Part shown: in pieces, positions 1-32,200 of the stretch
How the letters are laid out: the number at the start of each line of letters is the position of its first letter
How positions within the stretch are numbered: the stretch's first letter is position 1
DNA from: Schmidtea polychroa
Taxonomy: Eukaryota
Direction of reading: 5' to 3'
Length of the DNA stretch: 63,768 nucleotides
NCBI GenBank assembly: GCA_044892525.1
Contig: CM097885.1
Location: 176,514,001 to 176,577,768, forward strand
The notes under the pieces: generated by a model
Database searches by the model: none
What the model saw: only the letters and a program-made list of their open reading frames with translations
What the model was told of the DNA's origin: nothing
Translations under genes and position numbers: made by a program

Positions 1-214
1 TATATTGTAAAAGATAAAAGTCGAACCAGATAACGGACCATTTGTGTCAAGGATAAACACGTGATGCTTCTCGCAGATAACAACTACAACAAGTCAATCA
101 CAAGATGTACAGCGACAAGTCTACAACCGAAACTAATAAGAGAATATAAAAGCACAGGCATACATCAACACTCACATTAAAATGACGTAATTTAATTTTC
201 AAATCCAACCCATA

Positions 215-530
215 ATGTCAGCTCAGAAACGCAAGCGAACTAACTTTACTCTAAAGGACAAAGGAAATCATCAAACCAAGTCGGCCAGGAAGATAAGCAG
301 GAAATGGGGCTTCGAAGTTAAGAGAACCACCGTGAAGGGCATTCTCAGCAAAAAGGATGCAATTGAGACTTTGGAGTCAGATATATCAGTCTGTGTTAGG
401 AAATATTTTATCCACCAGATCAGAACCTAACATTTTGGTGAGCCCGACTTGATCTAAAAGATAGTCGGTGGACAATAAGTCAAATTTTCAAGATAACGTT
501 TGCAACCAGATCAAAAAGTAAAGTAAATCA
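215..530 (+). pseudogene. Tigger/pogo (CENP-B-like) transposase N-terminal remnant
   Basis: MSAQKRKRTNFTLKDK...KWGFEVKRTTVKGILSKKDAIE resembles the psq/CENP-B HTH start of Tigger transposases; frameshifted and truncated. Confidence 0.6.
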
Positions 531-550
531 AAAAATGGTCGAGGAAAATG

Positions 551-647
551 TGAATTTATTTACGAGGTATCCAGCTTTGCTGTTAAGACATTTAGTGGTG
601 ATCCTGGAGAGTTTCCTGAGTTTATGTCGGAGTATTATACGCGTATT
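551..647 (+). pseudogene. Possible LTR-retrotransposon gag fragment (BEL/Pao-like FSGDP motif)
   Basis: A frame not in the ORF track reads YEVSSFAVKTFSGDPGEFPEFMSEYYTRI, like the xFSGDPxExxEF motif of retrotransposon Gag N-termini; it is cut by the hAT end at 648. Short match only. Confidence 0.3.
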
Positions 648-984
648 CAGTGGTGGGATTCAGCCGGTTCGCACTGGTTCGTGCGAACCATTTCCTAAAA
701 GTTTTTGGGTTTGCAGAACCGGCTGTGTTTACCAACAATTTAGCATGAAACAAAAAGTAAATAATCGCATATGAAATTCAAAAACTATCAAAAAAATAAA
801 AAATTAACAATTGCATAGGAAATTAAAAAATTTTCAAAAAAAAGTAGTCAATCTGTTGGGGCACCACTCGGTTGACCATCCTGTATTAACACTCTACTCT
901 AAGGGATGATTGTCCATTTTTGCTTAACAGCTATAATTTTGTCAACCTTGAGTCGAACCCCACATAATCCCTCCTCCAACATAG

Positions 985-1121
985 CACCCATGAATTGCTT
1001 CACATTGGTACTGTGCTATGCCGGCGAGACGTCAGCAGGCAGGTGAGCCCCTGCCTTAGGACTACTCCTTACTGAGGCCTCGACTTCCTCTCACTCGACT
1101 GCCGATGGAAGGACTTACGTC
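985..1121 (-). ncRNA. Conserved structured RNA motif of the LTR-like family (copy 1)
   Basis: GACGTAAGTCCTTC...GAGTAGTCCTAAGGCAGGGGCTCACCTGC...CAGTACCAA is shared with 8103 and 29111; the flanking stem covaries. Confidence 0.6.
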
Positions 1122-1384
1122 TAATCACGCTGACAAAACTCACGCTAACGTACACGAATGCAAATTTATCGAGGTAGGTCAAAATCCAGAAAACTTTCAT
1201 TCACCCCCGAATTGATGCTCATCTCTTCACCAAAATCAAAATAATAAGAACATCACGTTTATTATAATGTCATAACACTGAATTTTTGTACATTACGGAA
1301 ATTATTACCGTCAGAGAAAGAGTCAATGAAAATATAAGGTATTAGATTACAGCGAATGGCAGTCATTGAGATCGCGGTGGGTTT

Positions 1385-2134
1385 TCATTTTTCCCACTCG
1401 GTATCTTTCAGCAGTTCATCTAGATCAAAGAATTCAGCGGCGTTTTCTTCCCATGACACTCCAGTGGCTGAGACAATCGGCGCTGGAATCCCTGCGGTTA
1501 GATCAATAGATACATGAGAGTTATCGCCCTTGGTGAGATTTTCTGTGGAAGGGTCGTTGGATTTCGTTGATGCTCACTCACGCTGCCTCTTCTTGCGCTC
1601 GGCCCTCGATAACTGCCGACGCTTAGGCTTCGATATTGGTTGATTCCCCTGCAGCCCTACGGGTGCGGGTATGATGTGGGACTGTACTTTGCTGGTTCCC
1701 GTGAAGATAATATCCGGACGCTTCGGTGAGAGTTTGGTTTCGACGCACTCATGACAAGATCTTTTAAATGGAGACGATGATTTCGCCGAAGTGTCATGAT
1801 GCACTGGAAACAGGTTATCGGCTTCATTTATAGGAATTTGAACGATCTTCTTGGTCGTCGTTGCCTGGACATATACTTTATGTAATGCTTCGGACTGTTC
1901 TTTAATTAAACTTCGTTGGGCGCGGCTCTCGGAGATTAGAGCGTCCCGGCAGTGCTCGCTACGATATAGCTTTTTCTGCACTTCTTTCATTTGCACTGGG
2001 CTGAACCATGTGCCTTCCAGTTCGTCGATCTTACGTTTGTATCGACCGATCTGGGCTTGTAGGTCTTTGATCACCGCATTTCTATCCGAGCAGGAGAAGC
2101 AGGGACGTAGTGTTGGCTTGTTGTTCGGTATCAT
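1385..2134 (-). CDS. Uncharacterised element-encoded protein (CxxC, coiled coil, Arg-rich motif, acidic C-tail); in-frame TGA at 1574-1576
   Basis: Track ORF 1574..2194; the probable start is the ATG at 2134, just after a TTCGTTGTAG acceptor. After the TGA the frame continues 62 codons to SWEENAAEFFDLDELLKDTEWEK* (1385), matching homologues at 7268-7755 and 9001-9749. Confidence 0.65.
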
Positions 2135-2667
2135 TTGGATTACTACAACGAAAGGAAAAGTTATGACTACATCGGCAAATCGTGGATCAGACATAATGAC
2201 TTATTCACAGTTGCACGATTACTAAGGAAGGAAAGGACAAGATGAGTTGATGAGACAATTTTCCTCCCTTTGTGCTTAATCGCTGACATTCTATATGTTC
2301 TTTACAAGAATCACCCCTTAAGCCCTATATCATTCCTCTGACGAATGCAAACTATTTGTTAAAATTCAAAAAATTAAAAATTAACAGATTCATTAATTCG
2401 GAAATTTCCCTTTGGGTTACATAATTATGCATCACACCGAGAAATGAGATATACTACGCTGATCAATGCCCCAAACTTTCTCCTTTATGTCCTCCTAATA
2501 GGGCGCATATATAGGTAATCAAGAATTTATTGCTTAGATTTAATTATTAATTACAGCATTTAAAACAAATTTATTATTATTATCTATAAAATTTCTGTCA
2601 CTATTTATTAATGTCCAATTTAAAATATTCGCTATCGTATTCAACAATAATTCTATAATCAGTTAGA

Positions 2668-3117
2668 ATGTTGAGTCTAAAAGGTCGGAGTGTTATCACT
2701 ACTACCTTATCTAAAATATACCGATGCTGTTTCAGATACTTAACATTGAAAATTAGTTAATAGTTAATCCTAAGAATTTAACGCCTACTGTTATCGCTAC
2801 ACGAGATTTGTTACGGTAAGCATCTGCCAATCAAAATACATTGTATCTATTACTCGATACACTCATCTGTTATTACTTGTAACGACGGAATTTACACTGC
2901 ATATGTCACCTGGTGGAACGGTTATTTATCAATCATGTCGTTTCTCATTCACGCTCATGTTCAACTCTCATGGTTAGAAAATTGCTTTTATACATCTTCT
3001 ATTCACTGGAAATTTTCTGATACTCACATGTGGCATTGGAAAATTTTAGTTATCATCTCAACCTCTAGTTGTTTCTCACGGACATATGATGTTGGAATAG
3101 GTTATGATGAGTCGTAG
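2668..3117 (+). pseudogene. Antisense cargo ORF remnant in LTR-like copy 1 (hydrophobic, Cys/Trp/His-rich)
   Basis: One frame is open for 112 codons (2782-3117) in AT-rich DNA, in frame with an ATG at 2668 across three stops; no family recognised. Confidence 0.35.
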
Positions 3118-4957
3118 CTTCGTCAATATTGGAGATGTAAATAATATGATACCCCATTGCATAGATCGTTCAATCTCTATAAGTCCTATTTCAAGAGTAG
3201 ATATTCAAATCAATCGTAGAAATTCATTTGTGTCAGGTAATACGAATTGGTTATATGTGTGTATTAAATAAATCTTTGTCGCAACTTATTGTTATGAGTT
3301 GTTTTATTTTTTGACAATTATTGTTCATTTATTACTTTGTATCGACGTCAAAAGATCAAGATCTCGAATTTGGCTTATTGTCGCGAAAACTGAAGTTGAA
3401 TTCAAATTCTTAAAACGTCATAGAATTGCTTTAGTAGTGAAGGTTGATCGAGATTTTTTAAAGAACTTCGTGAGTTTAGAATTGTCGACGAAAATGGCAA
3501 GAGTAGCTTGGAAAAATAACACTTAACATCCCAGAGTCATTATGGAGACTCCCTCAGTCGCTGTGAAGCACATGTCTTATCCTACTACAAAATCGAAACG
3601 CATTATTCAATCTATGCCCTGACATTTTTACAGATTTTAGGTCACCTTCAGCAATTAGACCCGTGAAGAAGCCTTCACATTTCGGCCCAATCTAGCTGCG
3701 TGATTGAAAAACTCCATGTCCACCGGTGGAGCTCCCGAAGGCACCTCACACCATGACATGGAGTATCTCAACTCCACGTTTCTCGAAAATTTTTTGATTC
3801 ATAGAATTCTAATTCATAAAATCTTTGTTCATAGAAAAATCACAAAATTTCTAAATAAAATTCTTTTATTTCTACCAACTACAATCAACATCCAAATTAC
3901 TAAATTACTAATAATTAAAACGGAAATCAAATGAAGAGAATATTCTTTACTCATATTATATCAAGATTTTAGTCAATATTAATCATTTCAACTACTTTTA
4001 ACTTAGAGATAAGAGTAAAATAAAAATAAAGATCTCCTTACTATTGTGATCGGGGTTGAGGCTGAGTCAAAAACGTGTCGATTATGGCTTTACAACTAGT
4101 TCGTCTAATTCTGGTACTATTTAGTCCTTGAATGCTTAATCCGATAATGCTGTCGTCAAATTCGGTTATCCTTGAGTTACTGTGATCTCGAATGGTCGAA
4201 TTAACAGTTGATTTGCTGAAGTATTCTGGCTCTTGAATAAGTCCTATAAAATTTTTGAGTAAACGGTCATCTTAATGATTTTGGTGCCGGTTTATATAGT
4301 GATTTTTTATTTATGCGGACCAATCAGAATTGAGTACTGCTTATTTTATTAAATTAATTTGCTTTTCCTTATTTCTTTGGACTTTTTACTTATTTTTCCT
4401 ATTTTTATTATACCTTGTATTTATTTCTTAAATTCCTTATTATTTGTTGCATTTTTCGGCATCTTATTCGTTATCTTATTACCTTATTTTTAATTTTTTT
4501 CATTTTTTATTTTTTGTTTTAATCCTTATATTTCATTTTATTATTTCTTTCATACCTTAACTTATTTATTTTTAAAATTTGTTGTCTTAGTTTATTTTAT
4601 TCACATCCTATCTGTCTTAATTTTCGACGTTTTCCAAAGTTAACTTTTTTGACTCAGCCCAACAAATCGAATACGAAATTCAAAAAATTTACCGAAGTAT
4701 GCTTTACCAAAAATTTATGATTTGAATTTATGGTTTTAAAAAGTTTTCGTGAGTGTGGTTTAAATTTGTTTTATATTTTTCCAGTCTTCTTTAGGTAGTG
4801 TTTGTGACAACAAATTGTATTAAAATTGTAAGTATATATTAATAAATAGTTATTGTTAAATTAATTTTATTGGAAAACAATTGACGTTAAATTTATGTTA
4901 AATTGTGTTAGTTTTACTTAATTATATGTTAAATTTCTCGGTATTATTTTAGCCATC

Positions 4958-7054
4958 ATGAAGCGCGGTGGACAACCAGTTTTGTCTGATTTTTTTTCTA
5001 AAGAAGGTGAAGCCTGGTCAAGATATGACGCCAATAACAAACAGAAGAAGCAGAATCGCCACATTCAGCTAATACTGTGCAAATCAATGACGAAGTAAAA
5101 CACAATCTCCCAGATTGCTGGAAGCCCTTGCAATTTCAAGATTTTCAGAAGAAATATGATGGCTTATTAGTTCGAAATAAAAAATTGGGTTGTAATTATT
5201 GCGCGCAAATAGATTCAATAAAAGCGAAGGGAATTCATGTATCAGTTGAATGGAAAAGCTGCAATATTGAAGCATCTGGAAAAAATAAAACCATTCAACA
5301 AGCATTTCTCCGAAAAAAAATGAACACTTTTTATCTAAGGCTCACCAAGTTAGTGTACATCAGTTAAAAGGTCGTTCACAAGACGTAATTTTGCAATGTT
5401 TCGATAAAAGTAATGAAAAATACGTCGATTCTACATGTAAAATCTTTAATACTGTTTACAGTATAGCAAAAAGATGCAGACCATTTTCTGATATTCAAAA
5501 TGGGATTGAACTACAAGTTAAAAATGGATTGAGCATGGGAGTGAGACTCCATTCTCGCAAAACTGTAGTTAAAATTATTGATCACATTGCATCAGAAATA
5601 AAAAAGGAAATATTTTGCAAAATAATCGCAAAGGATTTGAAAATTTGCATCATAATCGATGAAGCCTCGACTATATCTAGTAAATCTGTACTAATAATTT
5701 ATTTAAAAGTTGAAGATTCTGATGTGCCACCAACAATATTTCTAGATTTAGTTGAATTGGAAGCATAAGATGCTGAAACCATATACACGACCATGTTACA
5801 GAGTATATATAAAGTTGAATTCGATATAAATTATTTGAAATCAAATTTGATTGCATTTTGTTCTGATGGTGCAAGTGTAATGCTTGGTCGTAAATCAGGT
5901 GTCAGCTCAAGACTTTCAAAAGATTTCCCTGGCACAATTATTTGGCATTGTTTAAGCCATCGTCTGCAATTGGTTTTAGATGATTCTATTGACACAATAA
6001 AACAAATAAATCATTTCAAGATATTTATTGATAAAATATTTTTCATATGATAAAGTGATTTTTCATAAATAAAATAAAAATCAGTTAGAACTTAAGAATA
6101 TTTCTGAAGAACTTGGGCTAGAAATTATAAAGATTGGCAGCTTAAGAGCAACAGTTGCTGTATGGAGGGCTTATCCAGCTTTATATAAATATTTTGTTTC
6201 TAATACGAAATATTCAGGAATGGCTAATCGACTTCGCAATAAATTCTTTTTACAAGATTTAGCAATAATGATTGATATTTTGCAAGAAATTTCATGTTTC
6301 AAACGCGCTTCAAGCTAGAAATTTAATAAAAAGATCCATGTTGGCCATTAAAATGATTAAAGAAAATAAAGGTATATATGAAAAGAAAGTGAATGAAGTC
6401 ATCAATTCAGATGCTTTTAAAGATATTAATTTTATAGAGCATACAATTTACAGTAGACTCCCTAGCCAAAAACTATTGGACGCAGTAATTGCTAATATGA
6501 GAACAAGACTAATGGATGATGATAACCATTTATTGGCAACAAAAAGTACGAAAAATGATACCAATAAACTTTTTGAAGTTATTAGCGTTCTGGAGCATGA
6601 TTCTTGGAACATCGATGAGATTGTGGTTCCACGGATAGCCGCAGAAGAGAAATTGGTCGGATTCACAGATATTTTTAAATACAACATCGACGTAAATGAC
6701 TTCCGTGACTTTTTGGAAAATGTTATAAGCAATCGCGAAATTTTTTTCATTCCATAATCAATACAAAGAGCAAAAAACATCAATACTGTAGCGATTAGTT
6801 CTGCGGAAGCAGAAAGAGGGTTTTCTACAATGAATCTAATATATTCCGAAAAAAGAAACCGTTTAATTGTTCAAAATGTTGCTAATCTCATGGTAATAAA
6901 TTTAATTGGTCTTCCTTTGGACATATGGAACCCTGAACGATTTGTTAAAACTTGGTTGAGGAAGAATCACTCTGCAGATGACAACAGAGTAAAAAAACCT
7001 GCACCAATAAACTATAATAATAATCAAATTTCAATTTGGAAATATTTGAAATAA
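4958..7054 (+). pseudogene. Disrupted hAT transposase (KIAA1586/ZNF862-like)
   Basis: Fragments show IIIDEASTIS (catalytic D), [25 protein letters not shown] and ISSAEAERGFSTMN plus the dimerisation domain; several stops and frameshifts. Confidence 0.9.
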
Positions 7055-7267
7055 TTTTAAACACTTTTTATATATATATATATATATAATAACTATCCTG
7101 TTTCTATTACCTTTTTTTAACTGTTTTAATTTAAAATAATATATGAAATTAAATAATGAATTGAAATAAAAACGATATCAAATTTTTGATTTTTTTTACG
7201 GCCGAACCGGTTCTCAATTGTTTTCCGGATACGAACCGGTTGTTAAATATTTTGAATCCCACCACTG

Positions 7268-7755
7268 ATGCAAGCATCAATTACAAAGAAGATCGTAGAC
7301 ATACCCATTGCGGAAGAAGACAACGTATTCCCGCACCACCATCTCTCATCGGCATCGTTATCTAACTCAGCTAAACAGGCACACCTGATTCATTCGAATA
7401 CCCTACGGCCAACAATCCCTGCCGAAGTAATTAGTACAGGCACTAGTCGAGCTGCCCCCAGAAAATAGATCTATCGACCCCATTCACTCTTCCGGAGGCG
7501 ACGAAAATCACCAAACGCCGGCAACCGTCTAGGGCCGAGCGCACAAAGAGAAGGAGGGCTCTCCAGGCTGAGAGAGAAGCGACTCTCATCGCCTCCGCCA
7601 AACCCCAAGCTCCAGTACCTTCAGCGGAAACCGTACTTCGTTCTCCTCCTGCGTTCAGGGTAATTCCGCTCACAAGTACGTCCTGGGAGGAAGACGCCCG
7701 AGACTTTTTCGATCTCGACGAGATCTTTGCCGGAACTTCCCCAAATACATTGTGA
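7268..7755 (+). pseudogene. 3' half of the element-encoded protein (copy B), one frameshift near 7455
   Basis: QASITKKIVDIPIAEEDNVFPHHH, EVISTGTS, TKRRQPSRAERTKRRR and TSWEEDARDFFDLDEIF align motif by motif with 1385-2134. Confidence 0.75.
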
Positions 7756-8102
7756 TTCGTTTCTTGTGTCGTAACTCATAAATATATTTTCTTGTCGTAA
7801 TCTATAAATATGTCTTAGTGTTGTAAATTATAAATATATATTCGTGTTATTGATCGATGAATTAAACGATTTCGAATGTTTGTTGGTGTTGAAGTCTGCG
7901 AATATGAAATTAAGCAGTGAATGCGGGGAGTGAAGATTAGAAGGTATATGGTAAGGTCAAACTTGCAGGGTAAAGAGGTGACGGAAAAACTGTAAATCTT
8001 TGTTGGTGTGTGTTGGAAGGAGATCGTTTTGGAGAATAAGGAATCATGGTGGAGATTGTTCGATGATGGGAATGATGCGTGCAATCCTTGAATGATGAAA
8101 AT

Positions 8103-8240
8103 GACGTAAGCCCTTCTAACGGCAGTCGAGTGTTAGTTAAGTCGAGTTGGGATGAAGGAGTAGCCTAAGGCAGGGGCTCACCTGCTTCATCGCAGCTCGC
8201 CGACATGACACAGCACCAACATGATGCGAATTGGTTAAGG
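8103..8240 (+). ncRNA. Conserved structured RNA motif (copy 2)
   Basis: GACGTAAGCCCTTC...GAGTTGGGATGAA-GGAGTAGCCTAAGGCAGGGGCTCACCTGC-TTCATCGCAGCTC. Confidence 0.6.
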
Positions 8241-9000
8241 GTCCCTTGGAACGATGACATGCTGCATATGCATTTAGGACTACCATCCCCTAGTAAGTGA
8301 AAATGTTTTCTGACCCGACCCAAGGCCCAGCAATATAAACACCGGAAGAGTCACATAATAATGCATTGATCTCCAGAACGAGGGAAAATGACGATAAATA
8401 ATAAATTTTCACCAAGTGCAATGATAATGTCAACATCTGCTATACGGCATATGGATCTCTAAAACTACTTCCAATAAATGTACCGGATATGCATAGTTAG
8501 ATTCCCCGAAATGTCAGTTATTTCATACAGTAGAAAGGCTACAATTTTGGAATGCGATATAAATTTTAATTTAAATCAATAATTAATAATTTTCCCCGTT
8601 GAATTTTCCTGGTAATAGTCGTTTTTTTTGCGACGTCATTCGAGCAAGTTGTTACCGAAATAAGTAATATTCAGTTATTAAGGTGGGTCGTCATACTCCG
8701 ATTGAATCTAGCCGGGGCTTATTCGATTGAAATTATAGGTTCAACCGCAATTAATGTGAGAAAGGTGTTGATATTAGGTTTGGCGCAGAATGTTGAACTT
8801 AACGGTATTAAATTTCGAGCGACGAAACCGCTGGCATGAAATGTTAATATGATTGATTGGAACCAGGGATGTTGCCGGTATGTGAACCGAATGATGAATG
8901 ACCAAAGGAGGGGTGAATGAGTTATTTTAGTATGCATCTTTCTGCCTGTAATGTGATTTGACCGAAACTCACTTATTTTCTTAATAAATTCGTTTTAGAT

Positions 9001-9749
9001 ATGGCCGTTCCGAACGCAAACAGCTCTACTCTACGACCTTGCTTTTCTTGTGCTGACAAGAATGTGTCAATGCACACCTTACAACTTGAAATCGGACACC
9101 TGAAAAAACGTACTGACTATTGGGGGGGGGGGGGGGGGGCGTGGTCACCCCCGTCCAGATGAAAGAAGCGAACAAGAAGATACTCCGGCTCGAACATTGC
9201 CGAGACAGTCTCTTGAAGGAGAGTCGTTCACAGCGTATCCATCTGCGAGAACAATCCCGAGCACTACATAAGGTTTGAACGTCTTTGGAACTCAAGAATC
9301 GTATCAATGGGTCTCCGGCTGTCGATCAGGGGAACATCTTTCCCAGCCACCATCTGAATGGAGGGGCAAGTTCCATGTCCGGGACACGGGAACGATGTGA
9401 GCACGCCATCAGTTCTTGAAGTCATCTACATCGGCACCAGTGTAGCTCCAACACCCAGCAAGGCGCCTATGTGGCTCCGGTCCCAGTTGTCGTAACCGGA
9501 AAACCCAAGCGTAAATCTCGTACACGCGCGGAGCGAACACAGCGTCGAAGAGCAAAGCAGGCAGAATCACAAGCAGCCCTAGACGCTTCCCATGCCAAAG
9601 CAGCTGCTGACATGGTTGCTGCAATCGAGTTCGCCAAATGTCCACCGTACCGAATTTTGTCTTCCGTCGGTTCCCGAGGAACGGAGGAAAACCAAGCCGA
9701 TTTCGCTCTTGAACAACTCATGCGAGAGGCCGAAGAGGAGGGATTTTAG
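9001..9749 (+). pseudogene. Near full-length element-encoded protein (copy C), disrupted
   Basis: MAVPNANSSTLRPCFSC...PVQMKEANKKILRLEHCRDSLLKESRSQR...EQSRALHKV*, NIFPSHH, EVIYIGTS, KPKRKSRTRAERTQRRR, DFALEQLM. A G18 run (9122-9139) and stops break it. A degenerate right end CCCCAACG lies at 9881-9888. Confidence 0.75.
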
Positions 9750-9889
9750 GTATCTTCTACCTCAATTCTACCCCAACCCAAGACGAGGTAGGATTAAGCG
9801 TGATGATTGCGGGAATTGAGCCATGAATGTATGATGTCTCCTAGACTATCAAAACGACGTGAGTCAACTTGAAGGGAATACCCCAACGA

Positions 9890-10770
9890 ATATATATACG
9901 ACTATGGGGTAAACGTCATTGACAATAATATTATATCTGCTGTGGTAGAAAGACAGGAAAACAATGAAATTGATACATCCCTCACTGGAATAAAGCATAA
10001 ACGAAGAAAATGACTATGACAAATTCTTTAGACTGTGGGATGCTTCCTCAGGAGGGGCGATGAAATCACCAACAGGTAGTGATGTGATCTTTCAACCCCT
10101 CGAGACTAGATATGATAATCTACATGAGACAATAGAAAGAATTGCTAAACAAGCAAATATGCAGGACGCAGAAACGATGATACGAGGTATGGGAAGGCCT
10201 CGAAAATCTGAAATCGCTGAGAAATCAGAGGAAAGAAAGGCAGCGAGCGTCTAAAAGATATAGCAAACAGGATGTTCCAAAAATCCAGGATGATAATAAA
10301 GAGGTGAATATGATAACGGAGCTAATTAATGCAATGAATACGAGACGATTCCCAGAAGCAAGACCATCAGTGTTAATAGAAAATATAGTTAAAAAATTTA
10401 AATTAATGAAGAGATTAGGGAATTGAGTACAGAGGAAGCGAATGTAGAAACGGTGTTAAAAATATTATTTACAACAGGAGTAAATAGGGACAAAGTGATT
10501 ACTGCGATGGCATATTTAATAGCGAGATACAAAAAACTTCTACGAATGAATCCAAAGGATCAAATAGAAAACATAGCTAAGCTGATATATAATAAACTAA
10601 AGATGGATGCTATGCCTTGGGTAACATTAAAGGAGGATGGAAATACTGTATGATGAGAGCCTAATAGAACGAGAAAGTATAAAAGCCAATAACACGGCGG
10701 AAGTAGATGATACGGAAGAGGCAGTTAAAAACCTTGTAAATAAAACCACTATGAAACCAAGTGTTAGATG
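9890..10770 (+). pseudogene. Decayed ~290-codon ORF of unknown family upstream of the env-like ORF
   Basis: Consecutive ORF pieces (10060..10254, 10423..10653 and intervening frames) joined by frameshifts and stops; helical, charged composition; not recognised. Confidence 0.4.
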
Positions 10771-11887
10771 ATTAGGGTAGGCCCATCACTACATTTACCC
10801 TAGATAAATATTACAGAACGGGGTCAAACAAATATAGAGTCAACGTGTACGCCGAAGAACGCCAGTAAACAAAGTTTTCTCGTTGATATCCATCTATGCA
10901 ATCCAGATCGACAACCAAACAATCCAATTTCCCAAACAAGAGCCAATAATTGAACTTTCATCGATATTCATTTGTGTAAATAACTATGCGTTCAAAACTT
11001 TATAATGATTCATTTTTCTTCGGTGTAATAGCTAGATATTTTTAATCATGAACTATATCGAACTTTAATTTTTATTGAATTTGTATATTTTTATTGTGAA
11101 TTTTTATTTTTATGTTCTCAGTATATTTCTAATTTTTATAAACACAAATAAAAATAATGGGTATTTAAGAGAAATTAATTTAATAATATCAGATTAAAAT
11201 TTCAATATAGAATTGAATAACTTTCAGATTAATAAATTACCATTAAAAAATTGAATAATTTTCAAAAACAAGTTCAATCCAATTAGCAGATATAGAATTT
11301 AATAATTTCCAATGTCGATTCCAATAAACAGCAGTAGAATCAAAAAAAATTAATATTTATAATAACTGTAGAGAAATTAAGTGAATATTTGTTAAACATT
11401 AGGCATATGAAACAGCAGTAGAATTAAAAATACATATTTATAATAACTGTTCAACATTAGATATAGAAAAATTAAATAAATATTTATTAAACATTAGGTA
11501 TGTAGAAAATTTAGTATATAAGCGATCATTAAAATCAGTTTATTCGCCCAAAAATTTTGCGAAAAACTCTTATTCAAAGGTTAATCCTTCGAATAACTTA
11601 ATCCGCGAATCAGTACAAAAAGATTCACATATTGACGAAACATACTAAGGTATAACACGCATACACAACATATAACAATACACATATAATCTTTACAAGC
11701 ATTTCAGGAAAAGTTATTGAAAAGAATTGTCAAAGTATTACAAATTTTCTATACTTGGTAATTGTTGATTATAATAAATTTTATTACATATATTTGTCTT
11801 TGTTTTGATATATATATAAGAACCAGTAAGTTGAGTGTTCCCGAATATCGAGGCCTCAACACAAGTCAAAAGGAGAGAAAATCGAAA

Positions 11888-12070
11888 ATGTCAATAGTAA
11901 TAATAGTAATAACATTATTATTAGATTTGATAAAAGGGAATAATGCAATCATAGCGTATGACTGTCAGAATCCCAAGTGGGGACAAAAGTATTCATTATT
12001 ATTTGTAGAAAATTGCCCATAGGCAAACCCAACAAAATTAATCATGGCAGACCCAAAGACCTTAATTTAA
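11888..12070 (+). pseudogene. N-terminus of a chuvirus-like / retroelement env-like class III glycoprotein, truncated
   Basis: Signal-peptide-like MSIVIIVITLLLDLIKGNNA followed by IIAYDC-x8-YSL-x5-C, the pattern I recall at the start of chuvirus-type glycoproteins and related retroelement env ORFs; continues *ANPTKLIMADPKTLI. TATA-like tract about 70 nt upstream. Confidence 0.55.
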
Positions 12071-12528
12071 CCTCCAGTAATTTTAAAAATTGATGAGTCA
12101 TCTGATGAGTCAAACTGATGAAACCGATAGAAATTTTAAAAATAAATTAATAAAAATACGCCCCTCCTCCCCCTCCCCCATTTGCCCTCCCTACAATGAG
12201 TCATATGTTTTTGTTCCCGGCTCCATCCTACTTGAAATTTTAAATGAAAGTTATTTTGATTTATAAATTTATTTTGAAGGAACCTGATGAACTTAGGGTT
12301 GTGAAAGGATTACAACTTGTAATGTATTGTTAAATTTTATCTTTTTCTTTTTTTTGTTGGTTTTAGTACAAAGTGTATTATAATTTTACACGTCGCACGT
12401 GGAGAAGATTTTATTTATTTGTTTTTTTATTTAAAAAAAACTATATAGCAATAATTTTTATCGCTATAGAAAATTGAATTTAAAAGATTAAAAAAAATCA
12501 ATAAAACATTTTTAAAAGCAACTAAAAT

Positions 12529-12870
12529 ATAATTGAAAACTTGTTCAAATATACAATTGGAATCTTGTGCAAGGATATAATTGAAAACCTATTCAAAGCT
12601 ACAATTGAAAACTTATTCAAAGATACAATCGAAAACTTATTCAAAGATACAAACGAAAACTTATTCAAAGATACAATTGCAAACTTATTCGAAGATACAA
12701 TTGAAAACCTATTCAAAGATATAATTGAAAGATATAATTGAAAACTTATTCAAAGATACAATTGAAAACTTATTCAAAGATACAAACGAAAACTTATTCA
12801 AAGATACAATCGCAAACTTATTCGAAGATACAATTGAAAACCTATTCAAAGATATAATTTAAAAAGATAT
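12529..12870 (+). repeat. 24-bp minisatellite (ACAATTGAAAACTTATTCAAAGAT), about 13 units
   Basis: Directly visible tandem units, with a higher-order duplication of variant units; translates to TIENLFKD repeats. Confidence 0.9.
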
Positions 12871-13299
12871 AATTGAAGAAAAAAAAAGATTATCACTAAC
12901 TATCGTATATCCTTGAGAATAATAAGTGAATCAAGAAGACTTTTGAAAGAAAATTAGTATATCATTGTAGAAATTCCTACTCATTCAAAAAAAACAAGAT
13001 TGTTAGATTTACTTATATTTTAATAAAAGTTAAGGATATTGTTTTGTTTGATTACTTTTCATAATATATTTGTTATTTGCCTACATAAACCGCATAGATA
13101 TAACATACACATACGCCAACTGTCCCAAACAGTTATTTTTGCGGAGACTCTGTTGGCCTCTACAATTTTCCTATACACAACACCATCATATTACTTTTTA
13201 CTGAATAAGAAGAATCTAACACAACTTATCATTTTTATAATGAAAAATGATCCTAATTTGTTTAAAGCTTAATGCGATTATGAAACTGGATTACATTTA

Positions 13300-16925: not shown

Positions 16926-18689
16926 TTATTCGATTTTGTTCATTTGATTACTTGACAAATCATTTATACTCTGGGATTTATATGTGCCATTTGAGTTAGA
17001 TTTGCTTTGTAAATATGGTCTATTTACTGTATCCCCGATAATTAAAGCTGAATATCGACGCCTGATTGGACAATAAGAACGGTTTGTTGGTTTGAATGTC
17101 AATTCTGAATCAGATGGTGAACCTAAATTTTTACAGTAACTTTTAATTTTGGATTTTTCATTTATAATCTGTTTCTCGCTTAATGATCTTTTCGGTAAAT
17201 ATGAGTCATCTTTTAATAGTCGTTTCTTTTCTGACTGAACTAATCTAACAAGTTTAGCCACTCGATTTCTTTGATCACTATTTAGGTAATATCTCATTTT
17301 AGAATTGTTCAAAGATTTCCTTTTATTTTTTAGCGTTTTTTTTTGAATTTCATTGTTCTCAATATTTTCTCCATGACTGTTTTCTAATGAAAATTTTTCC
17401 CCAAAAGGTTTTGCAATGAAGTAATTGTATTGTTTTAATAACGCTAATATATTCATTTTAATAGCGTTGATAATCGCTTGCATATTTGAAATTTGAACGA
17501 GTAAGCATGATTTTTCTAACGGTTTTATAAATTTGATATATAATTCCAACCAAAAATCAGAGAATAATGGAACTTTAGAAAGGGACTGATAAATATAGGA
17601 ATTAATTTTAAACGACGTTTTGGCAACGTAAATCCAAGGCATTATTCTAAGAACTTCTCTAGATAAATTAGGATCTGTGGAATTGAGAAAGTTTATAATC
17701 CCACCTTCGCTATTTAAGCCTATAGAAACAAAATATTCGGTTAGAAAATACCAAACTTTGTAGTTATTGATCCATGATATACAGCAGTTCAAATAGGACG
17801 GGTCGGATATCAGAGGAATTTTATGAATTAGTGTGTCAAGGGCGTTTTTATTCGTTGAAAAAGCGTTGGTGCTAGTTTCTTGAGGTTTCCTACTGATATT
17901 TGATTTTGTTAAGCAAAGCGAATCTGTTTCTTCCAAATCAGATTCTTGAGATGATTTAAGTTTGAAAATTGAAATTGTATCTGATTCATTTTTTAGTTTA
18001 ATTTCATTTGCTGATCTCCATCGATTGCACTCAATCAAAAATTCTTTTGATAATTTTTTGGAAAAATTTTCATTCGTAGGAATGTCGCATGTGAGTGAAG
18101 ATAATATATTAAGAGCAATAAAATTGAATTTACGACGATCTTCGCGACGCTTGGTCATAGAAGGTCCAGGAGGATCGATCATTACGACAAGTGCTGATAT
18201 ATTATCTGCTCTGATTCGACGACGTTTCCATTGAGAAATGGAATATTTTACCAACGAAGCTGCAGGATTGTAAAAGAAATTTGAATTGATATTTGGATCA
18301 AGAAATACTCGACGTTCAGTTTCTCGTTCACATATTCTAACGAGTTCTATAGCAGCTTCAACGGGTACGACATTCCATAAACCATCACTTCCAAGTACAA
18401 TGCACCTATGTTCTGTTGAATCGAGTGAAATGCATATCACATCGGGTTCTGGAGATATGTGATATATACCTTGATTCTGGTCATAGCTCCATAAATCACC
18501 AAGTGATCTAGTTACTGCGAGAAATGGAACCTGTTCATATTCGACTGAATCACCTTCAACGATATCTTTTTTTTTATTAGAATTTTTAGGTCTATTCCAA
18601 ACTACTCGTTGGACACCGCATTTCTTTGCTAGCATACCACCGTATTTTTCTATGCGTTTCTTTTCAACCAAATTGGATGGTTTGTGTTC
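16926..18689 (-). CDS. PPM1D: PPM1D/Wip1-like PP2C phosphatase, exon 3
   Basis: After the acceptor ttcag at 18690: EHKP...RVVWNRP...VPFLAVTRSLGDLWSYD...SPEPD...CIVLGSDGLWN...RIRADNISALV, all PPM1D-type motifs, followed by a long divergent C-terminus. Confidence 0.88.
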   Translation of the reverse strand, partial: EHKPSNLVEKKRIEKYGGMLAKKCGVQRVVWNRPKNSNKKKDIVEGDSVEYEQVPFLAVTRSLGDLWSYDQNQGIYHISPEPDVICISLDSTEHRCIVLGSDGLWNVVPVEAAIELVRICERETERRVFLDPNINSNFFYNPAASLVKYSISQWKRRRIRADNISALVVMIDPPGPSMTKRREDRRKFNFIALNILSSLTCDIPTNENFSKKLSKEFLIECNRWRSANEIKLKNESDTISIFKLKSSQESDLEETDSLCLTKSNISRKPQETSTNAFSTNKNALDTLIHKIPLISDPSYLNCCISWINNYKVWYFLTEYFVSIGLNSEGGIINFLNSTDPNLSREVLRIMPWIYVAKTSFKINSYIYQSLSKVPLFSDFWLELYIKFIKPLEKSCLLVQISNMQAIINAIKMNILALLKQYNYFIAKPFGEKFSLENSHGENIENNEIQKKTLKNKRKSLNNSKMRYYLNSDQRNRVAKLVRLVQSEKKRLLKDDSYLPKRSLSEKQIINEKSKIKSYCKNLGSPSDSELTFKPTNRSYCPIRRRYSALIIGDTVNRPYLQSKSNSNGTYKSQSINDLSSNQMNKIE

Positions 18690-18755
18690 CTGAATTATGT
18701 TTCGAATTGTGTAAATTTTTTACTATTTTAATATATTTGGAATATTTTTATTATA

Positions 18756-19641: not shown

Positions 19642-20351
19642 TATATACAATAACATGAAAAGCATGAACTGGTTATATCCAGCGAAATAAGTCATATATT
19701 AAGTAAGAGTTGTGTAAGAGACGAAAATCCAAATTTTCGTATATTAAATATCATTTGAAACAGAAAGTTACCAGAAAAACTGCACGCAAAAATTGGCCAA
19801 ACATATATCTTATGCCATGGAAAGTTGATGAAAAATAATAGTAAAATTCAAATAAAGAAAACTATCTTAAAAGATGGGAGCGCCCTAAAATACGTCTTCC
19901 ATAATGTCAGAAAATTTTTATTATTTGTCTTCTAAAAATGCTATTTCTTATTGTAAGTGTTGTTATGTTTATATATTTCCATATAAATAACTATGACAAC
20001 TTCATTATATCTCATATGATTTGACTTAAGAGAAAGGAATTTTGTTTGGTATATCGCAAATTTATTTAGTAGAAAACAGATTTTTTAGATCATAAATTAT
20101 GCGTGATATATTGATAATTTATATATTACAAAATAAGATTATATTATTAAACTATAAAATAACAAATTTATAATTAACTATGAAAAAAAATTGTTTATCA
20201 CTAATGAACTAATATGTGAATGCATAAGATCTTTTTGGAATTCGATTATTGAAAGTATGATAAAAGTTGCTCTTTGATGTGTTCACTTGATTGTATGTCA
20301 AAAGATTAAAGTTACATCAATTTATAAGCATTATGAATTAGGCCCTATGAT

Positions 20352-22114: not shown

Positions 22115-22167
22115 CTAAAATATAAATTTGGTATTTTAATTTAGTTTTTTTAATAATATAATCTTGC

Positions 22168-26212: not shown

Positions 26213-27935
26213 ATTTACTGTATCCCCGATAATTAAAGCTGAATATCGACGCCTGATTGGACAATAAGAACAGTTTGTTGGTTTGAATGTCAATTCTGAA
26301 TCAGATGGTGAACCTAAATTTTTACAGTAACTGTTGGGCTATAAACCGAGAAACCCGAATTTTTTTATAAAGAAATTAAATAAAATCTTGTTATAACATC
26401 AAATTAGGGTAATCAGTCAAGTATTAAGAAAAATAAAGAATAAGGAAGGGAGAAATAATAAAATAAAATAAAGAGATAAACAAAATCACCAAAATAAAAT
26501 AAACGACAAATAATTCCCAAACAGAACACGCAACCACAACTGAGAAGCAAAACAAAATAGCTAAGAAATATAAAGCAAAATATCAGAAAAACAAAATATT
26601 AATAATAAAACGAATAATAATCAACAGAAAACAATAATTAAAACAAAAAAGAATAAAATACAAAATCACAAACAGAATAACCAACAGGATCCAACAAAAG
26701 AAGGAGGAAAATAAGAAAAATTAAATTATTTAATAAATTACAAAATAAAAGCAATAAATAACCTGAAGAAAAGAGTTAAAAAGAATAAAAATAAGAAAAA
26801 ACACAACTTTACACAATAGCTGGATCCTGATTGAATGAAAATTAATATATAAGAAAAACAACTTGACTGATTCCTTCAATTCTAAAAATTTTCATTCAGG
26901 TAAAACTTTTCACGGTAAAAATCAATTCTAAAAATTTTCATTCAGGTCACTCATTAGGGGCTAATTTTATCATCAATTATACTCATTCGGAACTTTTATT
27001 ATCCATTTACAGTACAGTGTAGTATTCGATTCAAGGAGTTGAGATTCGACGAACAAGGAAAGATAAAAATGTAAATCTTGATTTGTATTTATTTTACGTA
27101 TATTTTATTATTCTATGTAACATTTAAATAAGTTAAAATATTAATGTTCTCTCTCTCTCTTTGATAATTTGATTTTTCACATCATTTATTTAATCATTTG
27201 AGTTGAATGTCGATGAGTTTACGATTTAGCGATGCCATTTTCAATGAAGAACGATTGGAGCATATTCCGAACAGTCGATATGAACGATGAATGCACCTGA
27301 GATGTGATAGTAATGATTAGAGAATAGTAGGAATCAACGAGCCAGTGTTATAACTGTGGAAGAACGATCGACCCTCTCCTGAGATGGGAGATATCGGAGC
27401 GTGAATGACAGGTAGAGATTGGAAGAAGGTTGGATTCAACATCAATTTTCTCGAGAATGATCAAATCAACCACCAGAATGTACAAAGGTTAGGAGCATGA
27501 GGAATTATTCCTGGCAGGGAATGAAGACTGGAGAATCAGATAGAAGAGAGGAAATGTTCCGGTGAATGGATATGGAGGATATGGAAATGGAGGATTGATT
27601 GAGAATATTAGGCATTGGATAGGCAGCTCTTTAGAGTAGGATTGATTGAGAAGAGAAGAATCTGTTGTCACCAAGGTATGAGGTACTTCAGAATGAGATT
27701 AGTATCTTGAAAATTGTGTATTGAAATCGTTATAATTAAAATTTCATTTTATTTTTTATTTATTTATCATTAATATGTGTGGCGAGACATGTTTGGGAAG
27801 ACGTTTGGGTATCGCTAGCACTCGTGCCGGTGGTAATCAGATGATTTTTGCAGATGGGAACGCCGGGGTGCAATTTAACTTGATAGATCTAAAGTTTGTT
27901 CGTTTTGGAGTTGATGAATAGAGAGTATTGGTTCT

Positions 27936-28553
27936 TCATATCAGTAATGCACATAGATTGATGAATATATAAGCCAGAATCATTCCATCAGGCAACCACT
28001 TTTGTAAGATAGGCGTAATAAGCAATCCACTGTACGCAAACATCGTTGGCAAGAAGCAATGAATCCAATGGTCACACTTGATTTCGTTGAGAAATTGGTC
28101 CAGACACTTATTTCCTGAGAGTGATTCGACCAGGTCGACATATAGCACTTTCTAACGAGTTGACATATCACATTAAAATCTATATATTTTCCACAGTTAG
28201 TTGATGTAAATAGCGATTGTTTATCCATGAGATTCCGTAGAATCGGAAAACGCAGTATAACAGCAGAATTTCAACTTTTGATAATCATCTTGTATTACCG
28301 CCGCTGTTGAGGAAATCGACACAACATCCGGTCTATTCTGGAAACGTTCGTAGACTTTGATATATTTCATACGGCCAAATCGAAATAATCGCCTCTCCTC
28401 GTCACGAGTGAAGGTAAACAGGGTGCACCGTGAACTATCCGCTAACAAGCAATTGCAGAAAATTATCCATTCGTGATAATCACGATTTGTATACAATGGG
28501 TAGAGACAGAGCGTCAATATCAAAAGTAAACTATAATTAAGGCCCTGATTCAC
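27936..28553 (-). pseudogene. Antisense cargo: signal peptide + Cys-rich ectodomain + C-terminal TM protein, two frameshifts
   Basis: Three overlapping track ORFs (28221..28553, 27980..28228, 27936..28148) concatenate into MNQGLNYSLLLILTLCLYPLY...many Cys...GMILAYIFINLCALLI. Confidence 0.45.
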
Positions 28554-29110
28554 TTAATTTCCAAGTCCCAGCACAATGTGTATTCATCGAAAATAAATCG
28601 GAGTCCTCGTTTAATTTATCTCGAATTCGCCTTAAATCTATCAAGAATGTTTATTCTAAAATAAACAATGGCCTAGCATAATTAAATCTTAAAATCAGTT
28701 ACACTATATCGTACCATAAATAAATAGAGTTGCCTATTAATTAAGGCAGAATGTGGTCGAAGCTGCAAATTAAATTAGATAATAAGTCGAATAATAGAAA
28801 GAATGGTCTTAAAAACGAATTACGGCAAACCTAGGGATTTTAATTTAAACAAACGGGTGAGTGTGCGAAGATCGTCCCTGCAAATTTTGTTTTTTCCATT
28901 TTAGATTAATTACTTTCAGGTCCCAAATTGTTAATTTTCGTAAAACTGAACTTACGATTAGGAAAACTTATGGTTACATTAGGATTTTTCTTGATTTATT
29001 TATCTTTAGCATTTTTCTCCGAATAAGTAGTCGTGCTGAAATAAAGGAAAACTGGAAACAACCTCACTTGGACCAGGGATATGTTAGAAATGGAAGAGAT
29101 GAATGAAGTA

Positions 29111-29250
29111 GATGTAAGTCCTTCTGGTGGCATTCAAGAACCCGAATTTTGAAGGTCAGGATGAGTAGTCCTAACGCAGGGGCTCACCTGCTCCTGAGTT
29201 CCAACCCATGTGTGCAGTACCAACATGATTCGTTGTCATGGGTACACATG
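29111..29250 (+). ncRNA. Conserved structured RNA motif (copy 3)
   Basis: GATGTAAGTCCTTC...TCAGGA-TGAGTAGTCCTAACGCAGGGGCTCACCTGC-TCCTGA...CAGTACCAACATGA. Confidence 0.6.
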
Positions 29251-32200
29251 ATGGAGAATACTGACAAATCATAATGGGCGTTTGGGAAGGAGTCCCCTAC
29301 GTAACAACCATCATCACCCCTAAATGACCATCATCGCGACACACCCCTAAGCGCCCAACAATAACTTTTAATTTTGGATTTTTCATTTATAAATGCGCGT
29401 CCATAATCTATAAATTGGACGTTCAAGATACTCTGGGACTGGTAAGTCACATATTATTAATGATAGGTTGAAAAATTGTCGTACGTCTGTCCGAATCGCA
29501 TCTGTCGTGGAAATTGATCTAGGTTCATCATTATTTGTAACTTCGATATTTGATTTTTTGTTTAATAATATGTTTTAATATAATGAAATTAATATTGGTT
29601 TCCAGAGTTTAGTAACATTTAGGTAAATCATGTGGAACTTTCGTATGATACGTGACATTTTGCATTTCGTGATTTTTAAAATGAATTGTTCGTTTTAAGA
29701 CTGTCATTTCCCTCAGGTTTATCGGGATTTTTTGAGTCGGTTATTTGACTGGAGGATTGTAGATTTTTCGAATTTTTAATGTTTAATATCGTTTGTTTCA
29801 GATGAATCATAATTATCTGCATTATTCTGGTTATGAATAAATAAAAATGGAACGATAGTCTGAATAACATGGTTTATATGTGCTAGCTTTTAATTGTATT
29901 AACAATCTACTCCATTTTTTTTGAATATTATCGTGAATTTGAAACGTTTAATAATTTATTTACTTGCGATTCATAACTCATTGGATGTTAAGATGACAAG
30001 TTTTCTCTATTTTTAATGTCGATTTTATGTATGTTAGTTAGTATGTGCTAAGATTCGATTTAAATTAAATTTGCTCGTCCCACTTAGCCCACTGGACATA
30101 AGTTTGACGAGTCCTTAGTATTGTGTAATAAGATCTTGGAGATACGAACAAACTTAAAAGTTTGACGCGGTTCACGATCTTCTTTATATAATTTAATACT
30201 TACCTCTTAAGTTTCACTAGTTGCTCGACTTATCTGTGCGTGAGCGTGATAGCGTAACGTGAGGCTTCCCATAAATAGGAGAAGGAGCGTTGGGGCGTCC
30301 GCACTTCACATGGCCTTCTTTCACTGTTGACAAAAGATGTTGCAGTGTTAACTGCGCAGATGAACTACCTCATTCCTTGAGGAAATTATATACTCAATTT
30401 TCGGACTTCCGTGTGATGTTGTTGGCTGTAGCCGAAAAATCTAACTATCAAGTCTAATAAAGTTTAAGTATACGAAAATGATTCCATAAAAATGTCAATG
30501 AAAAATCAAAACTTAAACTCGAAACTTTAATTGCATGATTAAAACATAAATCCTTACTTCAAATAGAATGCTTCAAACAATATCAAAATATTGTCTTCCA
30601 AAATTTTCATGCATTAAATTTTGACTAAAATGCTCTTTTTCTATACTCTAATTTTTGAGTGTGAGTATATGTGCTTACTGATGCAGTAAATAAATTATTT
30701 ATTTTATCATAGCCAAAGTATCATGGAAAATATACACGGAAAATGATATTAGATGATTGTAAGTTAAATAGAGATATTTCAGACCAAAATGGCTTATGGT
30801 AATTGCAAACTCAAATCTTGTAGCACCTATGTTAATATATGGGAATGGTGTATTTGCGAGAGTATCTGGGGAAGCATTGTATAATTAAGAAATCTTTGTT
30901 CAAATAATATAATAACAGCAATGTTCAAATGAATTGAATGTGAGTGTATATGGGAAATTGAGATTTGTGAACCTAATAACTCGAATGTTATTAGTGGACG
31001 AAACCTTAAGTGTTTCAATGCAGTCGATTAGTAGTAGCATTGTATCGTTTAACACGGGACTCATTGATATCTTTGCCAGATGACACTATGAAAAATTGCA
31101 TCTATTGTACAAAACGCATATGATTAAACTATAAATCTCTCGCACTTCAACTCCTAAATCTTTACTCAAATTTTTTCTCCTCAAGCAGTATTGTAATTTG
31201 ACTGTTTTGTTTGTCCTAATATTATATAAATAAAATGAGACTGATCACCTGAAACAACCTTTACTAGGAAGGGTTTGGAAAATAATCTTACAAATGTATT
31301 TCTGAAAAACTCTTTTGATACATTGTTTCACACATCTGGAAATTTTGAAACAATGTATATGTGACAGGAGGGAACTATTCTGGTGAAAGAAGAAAGGTTT
31401 TAAAGAACTGTTTTTGTGTCTATTCACCGTTTTTGAGAATTTTGGAAATTAGGAAGTAAGACAAACGAGGGAATGTTAGGATTTTGTGGAAGGAAAGTGT
31501 GGCCGTAATTCCATTTATCTGAACTATGTTATTACTCTTTAATAATTATTTAATCCAAGATCTTATATTTGCCTCTATCACTGATGCCCCTTTGAATTAG
31601 AGACCCTAGACAGCTGTGTACCTAGCCTATGCCTAAAGCTTTGTTGCTTATATGGAAATTTCTGCTTATTATTTGTTTCTAAATTTAATATTTTTTGTCC
31701 TTGAGGAGCTGGAAAAGGTTTTTGCTACTTTGATTTATTTGGGTTTTAGCTTGGCAATGGGCATTTAATTTATCAAACTCAGGGATCACGTTCTTAATTT
31801 AATTTTTTAAATTTCGGCGATGCCAAGATACCGGAAGGATTTTGGAGAGAGCATCGTCCCCAACAACCTGAAATTTCTCAACTTCTGCGTAGAACGGCTG
31901 TATGACCATTAGTTTTTAGAAGTTTTCTGTAACAACACAGAATTTGCATATTTATCATTGTTTATAAAGTTAATCAAACTTGCGACTTTTGAATTAGTTT
32001 AATTTTTCAATAACGATAGTCTCTGAAATGTTCTGGGAATAGGGGTAGTTTTGCAAACAAATCCCATTTGGGTGAGTTTTAAGGGAGACATCTAGAGAGT
32101 TGAAGAATAGTATCTTCTACAGACACCTTGGTTCCAGGAAATTCGTGAACTTAGCAGATCCAATAAGTTTTCGGGTTTCTGACAGACTACACATTACCGC

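Follow-up and report, generated by a model that had tools for sequence, protein, structure and literature searches.

In the genome of Schmidtea polychroa, we analysed a stretch of 63,768 nucleotides (GenBank assembly GCA_044892525.1, contig CM097885.1, forward-strand positions 176,514,001 to 176,577,768), hereafter the window, which holds four decayed solo or partial long terminal repeats (LTRs) of a Burro-like, env-bearing gypsy retrotransposon. In full-length relatives the LTR carries an open reading frame (ORF) for an arginine-rich protein, together with two RNA structures, a 140-nt element close to the LTR end and a double hairpin that is predicted to be intronic. We tentatively propose, by analogy with described systems, that the LTR protein is a Rev- or CERV-like regulator of genome-length RNA. 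A sequence-only reading of the window had suggested an arginine-rich protein acting with a cis RNA element, after the manner of Rev/RRE or Tat/TAR, inside a retroelement. What it observed is partly confirmed: homologous arginine-rich ORFs and homologous RNA elements are each present at three sites (Table 1), the ORF encodes a conserved basic protein and the RNA is a conserved structure. In copies 1 and 2 the ORF indeed lies on the same strand upstream of the RNA, the family ORF ending 267 nt (family A) or 351 nt (family B) before the GTAAG of the RNA. Its interpretation is partly supported, as described below, and the intronic double hairpin had escaped it.

To place these LTRs, we turned to the rest of the genome, where the arginine-rich ORF gave at least 150 strong matches (6428 first-look candidates). 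Pairs of matches at a distance of 20-30 kb represent the LTRs at both ends of giant elements. Four of the five pairs fetched consist of LTRs of 4.0-4.2 kb that are 99.86-99.98% identical, each with the ORF and the 140-nt RNA; the pair E1, an 8.4-kb duplication without the Burro polyprotein, was rejected as a full element and not used. The LTR starts of elements E2-E5 and H1 lie 20.5-29.5 kb apart. In E2, a single open frame of 4732 codons returned from Pfam Retrotrans_gag, zf-CCHC, Monjiviricetes_fusion (E 7.8e-67), RVP, RVT_1, RNase H and rve, as well as Ank_2, and a downstream accessory ORF returned RING and MATH. The fusion protein is of the mononegavirus type, and these polyprotein domains agree with the earlier claim of a complex, env-bearing retroelement. 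BIR and BCL2-like motifs gave no Pfam return at E 0.001 in the seven proteins searched (Pfam only). Burro/GYPSM1, as described in PMC6431247, comprises giant planarian LTR retrotransposons that are gypsy-like and have an abundance of apoptosis and ubiquitin domains, and Burro is a known, highly abundant and transcribed planarian element. The present element matches the description in PMC6431247, and it was assigned by that match and not by identity to a reference sequence. The two share a length of ~30 kb, thousands of LTR candidates, a single frame of ~4,700 codons with gag, a CCHC knuckle and an env-like fusion protein ahead of protease, reverse transcriptase, RNase H plus integrase, ankyrin repeats in the polyprotein and MATH/TRAF on an accessory ORF. 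They differ in that the text of section 7 of PMC6431247 names neither an LTR-internal gene nor an LTR RNA structure.

Several further features of the full elements were seen. The primer site matches the 3' end of genomic tRNA-Pro(TGG), whose genes near 130.9 Mb form a tandem array with a period of ~475 nt (2190 pattern matches genome-wide). A conserved 7-nt spacer, T(A/G)ATTTT, leads from the 5' LTR end into the primer site, and the run formed by both presumably resembles an Sm site. No purine-rich tract was found before the 3' LTR in the four elements examined (E2-E5). The leader between primer site and gag holds a RING-finger ORF (zf-C3HC4_3, E 5.5e-11; L040:7584-8168, + strand). In several of the accessory ORFs that follow the polyprotein (E2-E4), the ATG is preceded at 1-2 nt by an AG and a little farther upstream by a TGTAAATA(AA) motif, a pattern that may reflect either leader-to-body cis splicing with alternative polyadenylation or operon-like trans-splicing. 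With an AG next to several accessory-ORF ATGs, the element probably produces many spliced RNAs and must then provide for its unspliced RNA in some way. The LTR of the young full element H1 (L276-L279) has little DNA similarity to family A, yet the polyproteins of H1 and E2 are 84-89% identical; LTR families thus appear to swap, or to diverge faster than the internal region. Large inserts in E1 and E5, with integrase-, P-loop ATPase- and polymerase-like frames, are what we take to be probable Polinton/Maverick-type elements. At one 3' LTR start, contig depth peaks (L141:5339-5678) and in one contig a T run precedes 5339 (the run is guessed to be RNA), which is a weak hint of a transcript end or of an antisense transcript. 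Overall, contigs from runs guessed to be RNA cover the element patchily and list no splice joint, a result that speaks neither for nor against the predicted splicing.

The LTRs have a common order of motifs: TATA box, splice donors, double hairpin, splice acceptor, ORF, polyadenylation-like signal, 140-nt RNA, LTR end and then the tRNA-Pro primer site. A reversed CCAAT box and the TATA box lie at LTR position ~340-375, in the same arrangement in families A-D, the second donor follows ~200 nt after a ~25-nt AG/GT unit, and the double hairpin occupies LTR position ~890-1020. The predicted acceptor is found 0-10 nt ahead of the ORF ATG, the TATA box and the predicted donors being ~2 kb upstream of the ORF. 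Under a strict test, an acceptor is present in 45 of 74 copies, and at 28 of 1008 control ATGs (the 12 copies with no usable ATG are not counted, and a few rows are duplicates), and a YAG stands no more than 10 nt from the ATG in 72 of the 74. The polyadenylation-like signal, an A-rich hexamer with a T/G tract, was detected in 40 of 98 copies against 0/98 on the other strand and 1/96 upstream windows; by family, the counts were 12/25 in A, 8/29 in B, 1/17 in C and 19/27 in D. Among 30 LTRs that were chosen from 170 matches by primer site alone, the 140-nt RNA is carried by 29, the ORF is matched in 24 and a frame of at least 240 aa is open in 18. Intron-less processed copies, with the TATA region joined to the ORF start, were sought by pattern for family-A starts; among the matches listed of the 53 obtained, there was none that resembled the LTR, and three ORF copies that lack the RNA end at other insertions, not at polyA tails. 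Taken alone, this anatomy, as predicted from sequence motifs, is very probably correct.

The start of the predicted transcript has a peculiarity of its own. Around a 44-54-nt GT..AG segment, the ~25-nt unit that follows the TATA box occurs twice in 22 of 30 promoter copies; the identity of the two units is 99% within one copy and 64% between copies, and the single versions miss exactly the GT..AG segment. The same doubling is seen in H1 and G4. This fits a mini-intron at the RNA 5' end whose acceptor side would be overwritten by exon 1 at each reverse transcription. For size, the intron of the host RPL15 gene measures 42 nt. Since a polyadenylation-like hexamer lies just upstream of the unit, the repeat region (R) of the LTR may be short and U5 ~3.6 kb long.

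The LTR protein, of ~250 aa, comprises a CxxC, helices at 15-40 and 46-94, a disordered stretch, an arginine-rich helix at 176-190, a motif like those that interact with SUMO (SIM-like) and an acidic aromatic tail. Its model has a mean predicted local distance difference test score (pLDDT) of 58.5 and contains helices only; its cysteines are the one invariant CxxC and one further residue. The SIM-like motif is present in 8/9 family-A and 3/4 family-B proteins. We observed purifying selection, with a ratio of nonsynonymous to synonymous change (dN/dS) of ~0.08 overall, 0.05 in the arginine motif, 0.08 in the tail and 0.19-0.39 in the linkers, as calculated over 136 pairs of 17 open family-A copies at which synonymous sites are near saturation. 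Word-indexed homolog searches gave no match and neither did viral contigs. Searched with a profile, 1.84 billion proteins yielded 15 matches, 14 of them with a related helical region. The distant homologs have longer arginine runs and no CxxC and are mostly fused to unrelated host genes; one of them has a sub-threshold score to the Pfam REV family (E 0.0013, 19.1 bits, cutoff 22), and the match P0011 was discarded as a repeat artefact. The database models that fuse the LTR ORF to host genes (P0001-P0015) are probably annotation chimeras that stem from intronic LTRs.

The 140-nt RNA is made of three domains: domain I contains the donor-like GTAAG, which is present in 89 of 103 RNA copies, domain II is an irregular stem with a G.G mismatch and domain III a bulged hairpin. 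Its loops are near-invariant, namely GTAAG, a pyrimidine loop, the G.G mismatch with a 1x3 loop and an AA bulge. A six-helix structure was drawn by hand and scored on the sequences from which it had been derived, an alignment of 43 copies. These had been picked for their diversity out of 102 of the 103 rows collected plus one young LTR. In this structure, 89.9% of the cells are paired, against 79.2% in shuffled and 30-44% in slid alignments, and 165 cells are doubly changed, against 64 after shuffling, with compensatory pairs across five LTR families. Double changes affect 16 of the 33 pairs, a number that does not exceed the shuffles (84/500). Single copies fold little better than shuffled ones (z -0.2 to -2.1, 5 copies), so that the evidence for the structure is the covariation. 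We also considered this RNA as a stand-alone element resembling a short interspersed element (SINE), which was rejected: the located LTR ends always lie 220-410 nt after GTAAG, and 29 of the 30 LTRs chosen by primer site carry the RNA. It is very unlikely that the RNA is catalytic or activates the primer, as a ribozyme or a tRNA-pairing element independent of the ORF. Such a role would accord with the modest folding energy combined with invariant loops, with a U.U/C-G/G-C covarying pair beside GTAAG and with an alternative loop-to-stem pairing. It is at odds with a search of window positions 1-13000 against Rfam, which returned no family up to E 1 apart from one chance row (E 0.97) outside the elements, and with pairing to the 5' 55 nt of tRNA-Pro, which was at chance level (mean z +0.2, 43 copies). 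Hammerhead, hepatitis delta virus-like, twister and hairpin ribozymes were rejected, their core residues being missing.

The double hairpin folds more strongly. In copy A its z is -6.27 in sense and -3.06 in antisense, and among family-A subgroups it is 86-95% identical, at ~70% DNA identity of their ORFs. Among 24 close copies, 98% of the cells are paired and 6 of 53 pairs are changed on both sides. A homolog is detectable in family B, and structured blocks are similarly placed in families C, D and E. As a candidate target of the protein, the intronic hairpin is at least as good as the 140-nt RNA.

Both structures also occur in LTRs without the gene. Four loci found by primer site have LTRs of ~1.9-2.0 kb with no ORF homology even by profile, and belong to a family with its own U3 and primer site (L268-L271 = G3, L231, L240, L247, L250). 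One locus has both LTRs (93% identical) and a CACC duplication, with no polyprotein match between them. These LTRs keep the donor, the 140-nt RNA and a strong hairpin (z -6 to -7 in two, ~-4 in a third). This family is apparently non-autonomous and has replicated with both RNAs, so that both structures are needed in cis even without the ORF, a cis role at which the sequence-only reading had guessed; their reader could equally be Gag/Pol or host factors. The sequence-only reading had taken copy 3, an RNA without ORF, as the sign of a cis element served in trans. Copy 3 does lack the ORF, and the argument drawn from it fails, because this copy is a solo LTR with one internal deletion. It can be aligned to an ORF-bearing family over 26332-29002 (72%) and again from ~29029, a break which indicates that a single deletion removed the acceptor, the ORF and the polyadenylation signal. 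In 24 of the 29 relatives that were fetched, the ORF is still present ahead of the RNA. A cis RNA kept without the ORF is thus a property of the ORF-less family, and is not evidenced by copy 3.

How the parts might work together can be proposed from the motifs. Transcription would start ~30 nt after the TATA box; default splicing would take out the hairpin-bearing intron and cleavage after the ORF would omit the 140-nt RNA, so that the regulator's own mRNA would lack both structures. The genome RNA would have to skip the LTR splice and read through the ORF polyadenylation site, and so would hold both, the read-through being possibly aided by U1 on GTAAG ~140 nt downstream. The protein would then bind a structure present solely in unspliced read-through RNA and favour the production or export of genome-length RNA. 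Each LTR would in that case be a self-contained regulatory gene, whose arginine-motif protein, by binding an RNA structure directly beyond the gene's polyadenylation site or within its intron, flips it from regulator mRNA to read-through, unspliced genome RNA; we consider this full switch doubtful. The same reserve applies to the targets taken one by one: that the regulator binds the 140-nt RNA is a possibility of low probability, and binding to the intronic hairpin is no less speculative.

The proposed logic is that of CERV, a nuclear accessory protein of the Caenorhabditis elegans Ty3/gypsy element Cer1, which is made from a spliced mRNA, has essential cysteines and arginines and is needed for the export of the unspliced genome RNA (PMC10309623). 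It differs in that the CERV ORF lies in the interval from pol to the 3' LTR and not within the LTR, and in that CERV has G and M domains whereas only helices are predicted here (the two were compared by description, not by sequence); the portions of PMC10309623 examined define no structured response element for Cer1. With Rev/RRE of HIV-1 and Rex/RexRE of HTLV-1, the element shares an arginine-rich helix in a small protein, a predicted spliced mRNA and structured RNAs that are, here by prediction, confined to unspliced or read-through RNA; RexRE, too, is in the LTR beside the polyadenylation signal (PMC3694450). In contrast to Rev and Rex, the LTR protein has no above-threshold homology to them and no canonical nuclear export signal (NES), has a long coiled coil and an acidic tail, is encoded inside the LTR and comes with two candidate RNAs. 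Of the marks of a Rev/RRE system, an arginine-rich helical motif is predicted here, and neither a canonical leucine-rich CRM1 export signal nor above-threshold homology to Rev was found. In HIV-1, TAR lies at the 5' end of the transcript and Tat has a cysteine-rich core. The arginine-rich motif and hairpins with conserved bulges recall that system, but its geometry fails here, because the 140-nt RNA lies ~3.2 kb 3' of the TATA box (LTR positions 3544 and 367, the start site being inferred) and the double hairpin ~0.5 kb after it (position 886); moreover, the protein has no cysteine-rich core but one CxxC, which is absent from the distant homologs. As for GTAAG, a donor 195 nt downstream of the HIV-1 polyadenylation signal suppresses that signal (PMC3694450). 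As in the U1-mediated suppression of HIV-1 and foamy virus, a donor-like site lies near a polyadenylation signal, inside an RNA structure, and the signal must be read through at the 5' LTR (PMC3694450); here the site differs in lying in the LTR, 3' of the signal, and in being kept in a family without an evident signal. According to the portion of PMC3694450 consulted, no retroviral protein had been shown to affect polyadenylation as of 2013.

A number of observations weigh against a Rev- or CERV-like regulator. A conserved canonical NES is absent: six NES patterns gave one stray match in 9 family-A proteins and none shared across families, non-canonical signals not being excluded. Four LTR proteins returned no Pfam family, Foldseek against PDB and viral structures gave nothing at E <0.001 and generic coiled coils only, and the best score of an Atlas search, 0.84, is a lead at most and shows no link to Rev, Tat or CERV. 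The tail has a net charge of -4 to -8 and, together with the SIM-like motif, looks more like that of a transcription activator. The copies behind the dN/dS values were picked for being open-framed, and the polyadenylation test is weak in families B and C. From family to family the intronic hairpins diverge strongly in sequence, and in family C they fold weakly (z -0.2 to -1.6). GTAAG is retained in the ORF-less family although a polyadenylation signal with a T/G tract is not evident upstream of it (one copy read), so suppressing the ORF polyadenylation site cannot be the only role of GTAAG. Elements with different LTR-protein families have polyproteins that are 84-89% identical, so that the invariant loops of the RNA go with Gag/Pol no less closely than with the LTR protein. 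Finally, the histories of ORF and RNA, whose co-phylogeny had been named as a check, are indeed coupled (Mantel r 0.95, 25 copies), but no more strongly than linkage provides: within family A, protein and RNA correlate at r 0.58 and protein and spacer at r 0.56, and the arginine motif and RNA at r 0.22 (p 0.10). Linkage over ~300 nt gives such coupling.

Part of this evidence would suit a protein that activates the element's own promoter, like foamy-virus Tas or Tax, the RNAs being independent cis signals, a reading that we find rather unlikely. The coiled coil would oligomerise, the basic helix would be a nuclear signal or a DNA contact and the acidic tail an activation domain, while the RNAs would be read by Gag, reverse transcriptase or host factors for packaging, dimerisation, U1 protection or export. 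The purifying selection on the acidic aromatic tail, the SIM-like motif and the lack of a canonical NES all point this way, as do the place of the 140-nt RNA immediately ahead of the primer site, a location of leader and packaging structures, its retention in ORF-less elements and the parallel between invariant loops and polyprotein conservation. However, the basic helix is ~80 residues past the coiled coil in a disordered region, unlike in basic leucine zipper proteins, the arginine runs of the distant homologs look RNA-binding from their pattern and no DNA-binding fold was among the Foldseek PDB and viral matches. It is unlikely, more so than promoter activation, that the protein is directed at the host, for instance against SUMO- or piRNA-linked silencing or cell death, with the arginine motif as a nuclear or nucleolar signal. 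In its favour, the element has RING-MATH and RING accessory ORFs, Burro carries apoptosis and ubiquitin domains (PMC6431247) and is silenced by SMEDWI-2 (PMC8532177), the SIM-like motif recurs in families A and B and a location inside the LTR lets every solo LTR express the protein. Nevertheless, the R-x-E-R core with its non-basic invariant residues is under tighter constraint than a simple localisation signal needs, and homolog and profile searches gave no host partner or host homolog.

The features of the window are collected in Table 1. None of its three ORFs is intact. The stop in copy A falls 62 codons short of the family's end, and ATG 2194 lies upstream of the conserved acceptor, the start in relatives being the ATG that matches 2134. 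The ORF of copy B lacks its 5' half in addition to being frameshifted, and that of copy C has a frameshift at a G run (9122-9139) and further stops. The sequence-only reading had described copy C as ending in a shortened terminus that had lost most of the RNA. The loss is real and larger than stated, as the whole 140-nt element is gone and the profile has no match there; GACGTGAGTC is part of the terminal ~100 nt of family C. The decayed DNA transposon encloses copy A and borders on copy B where the 5' side of the latter is cut; a target-site duplication was not seen for it, and from its transposase-like frames we take it to be hAT-type, a label that no search returned. Two host genes are also present in the window, ribosomal protein L15 (32907-33560, + strand), with one 42-nt intron, and a PP2C phosphatase (16926-22489, - strand).

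Table 1. Features of the LTR copies in the window; functions of promoter, splice and polyadenylation motifs are predicted.
Feature	Position	Strand	Remarks
Copy A, solo LTR	854..4664	-	3811 nt; ends TGTTGGG...CCCAACA; 4-bp target-site duplication AATC (850-853, 4665-4668)
Copy A, promoter-like module	4292..4327	-	Reversed CCAAT box 4327-4320, TATA box 4298-4292
Copy A, predicted first mini-exon	4244..4270	-	~25-nt unit ending AG, single here; 5' limit approximate
Copy A, predicted second splice donor	4036..4041	-	GTAAGG, start of large LTR intron; inferred
Copy A, intronic double hairpin	3649..3779	-	From folding z and pairing across copies
Copy A, predicted splice acceptor	2143..2160	-	Pyrimidine tract and TAG, 8 nt before ATG 2134
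Copy A, LTR ORF	1574..2134	-	CxxC, coiled coil, Arg-rich helix; cut by in-frame stop 1574-1576
Copy A, Arg-rich motif	1577..1627	-	KPKRRQLSRAERKKRQR, predicted helix; R-x-E-R core common to families A-D
Copy A, untranslated rest of family ORF	1385..1573	-	SIM-like IDLT and acidic aromatic tail
Copy A, predicted polyadenylation signal	1258..1263	-	AATAAA, then T/G-rich tract
Copy A, 140-nt structured RNA (copy 1)	976..1121	-	Ends ~120 nt short of LTR end
Copy B, 3' part of family-B LTR	7268..8332	+	End CCCAGCA
Copy B, ORF remnant	7268..7755	+	Frameshift near 7450-7462
Copy B, 140-nt RNA (copy 2)	8103..~8232	+	Deletion of the 3' arm in domain III
Copy C, 3' part of family-C LTR	8333..9888	+	5' side interrupted by copy B; end CCCAACG
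Copy C, acceptor	~8993-8998	+	
Copy C, broken ORF	9001-9794	+	
Copy C, deletion	near 9776-9797	+	~450-480 nt; takes out 140-nt RNA
Copy 3, family-D solo LTR	26332..29360	+	TATA 26846-26852; intronic hairpin homolog ~27776-27870
Copy 3, deletion	~29002-29029	+	One deletion; acceptor and ORF gone
Copy 3, 140-nt RNA (copy 3)	29111-~29250	+	
Decayed DNA transposon	648..7267		14-nt inverted ends 648-661 and 7254-7267

The class of element is known, and no description of a spliced gene inside the LTR together with two conserved RNAs turned up in our search, which Repbase, the primary Burro papers and supplements lay outside. The LTR gene probably accounts for chimeric gene models in protein databases, and expression from many host loci is conceivable, as the gene is retained whole in solo LTRs. 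If the regulator reading is true, a 4-kb LTR with promoter, introns, a conserved nuclear regulator and two structured RNAs would qualify the element as "complex" in the sense used for retroviruses. CERV would then be joined by a second case from an invertebrate, one for which a candidate RNA target is defined. The full switch, if it exists, would represent a protein-driven anti-polyadenylation or Rev-like mechanism that evolved independently in a gypsy lineage, the regulator coming in trans from thousands of solo LTRs and serving ORF-less parasites as well. The system allows one to test directly by what means an AT-rich genome RNA of 25-30 kb avoids being spliced or prematurely polyadenylated.

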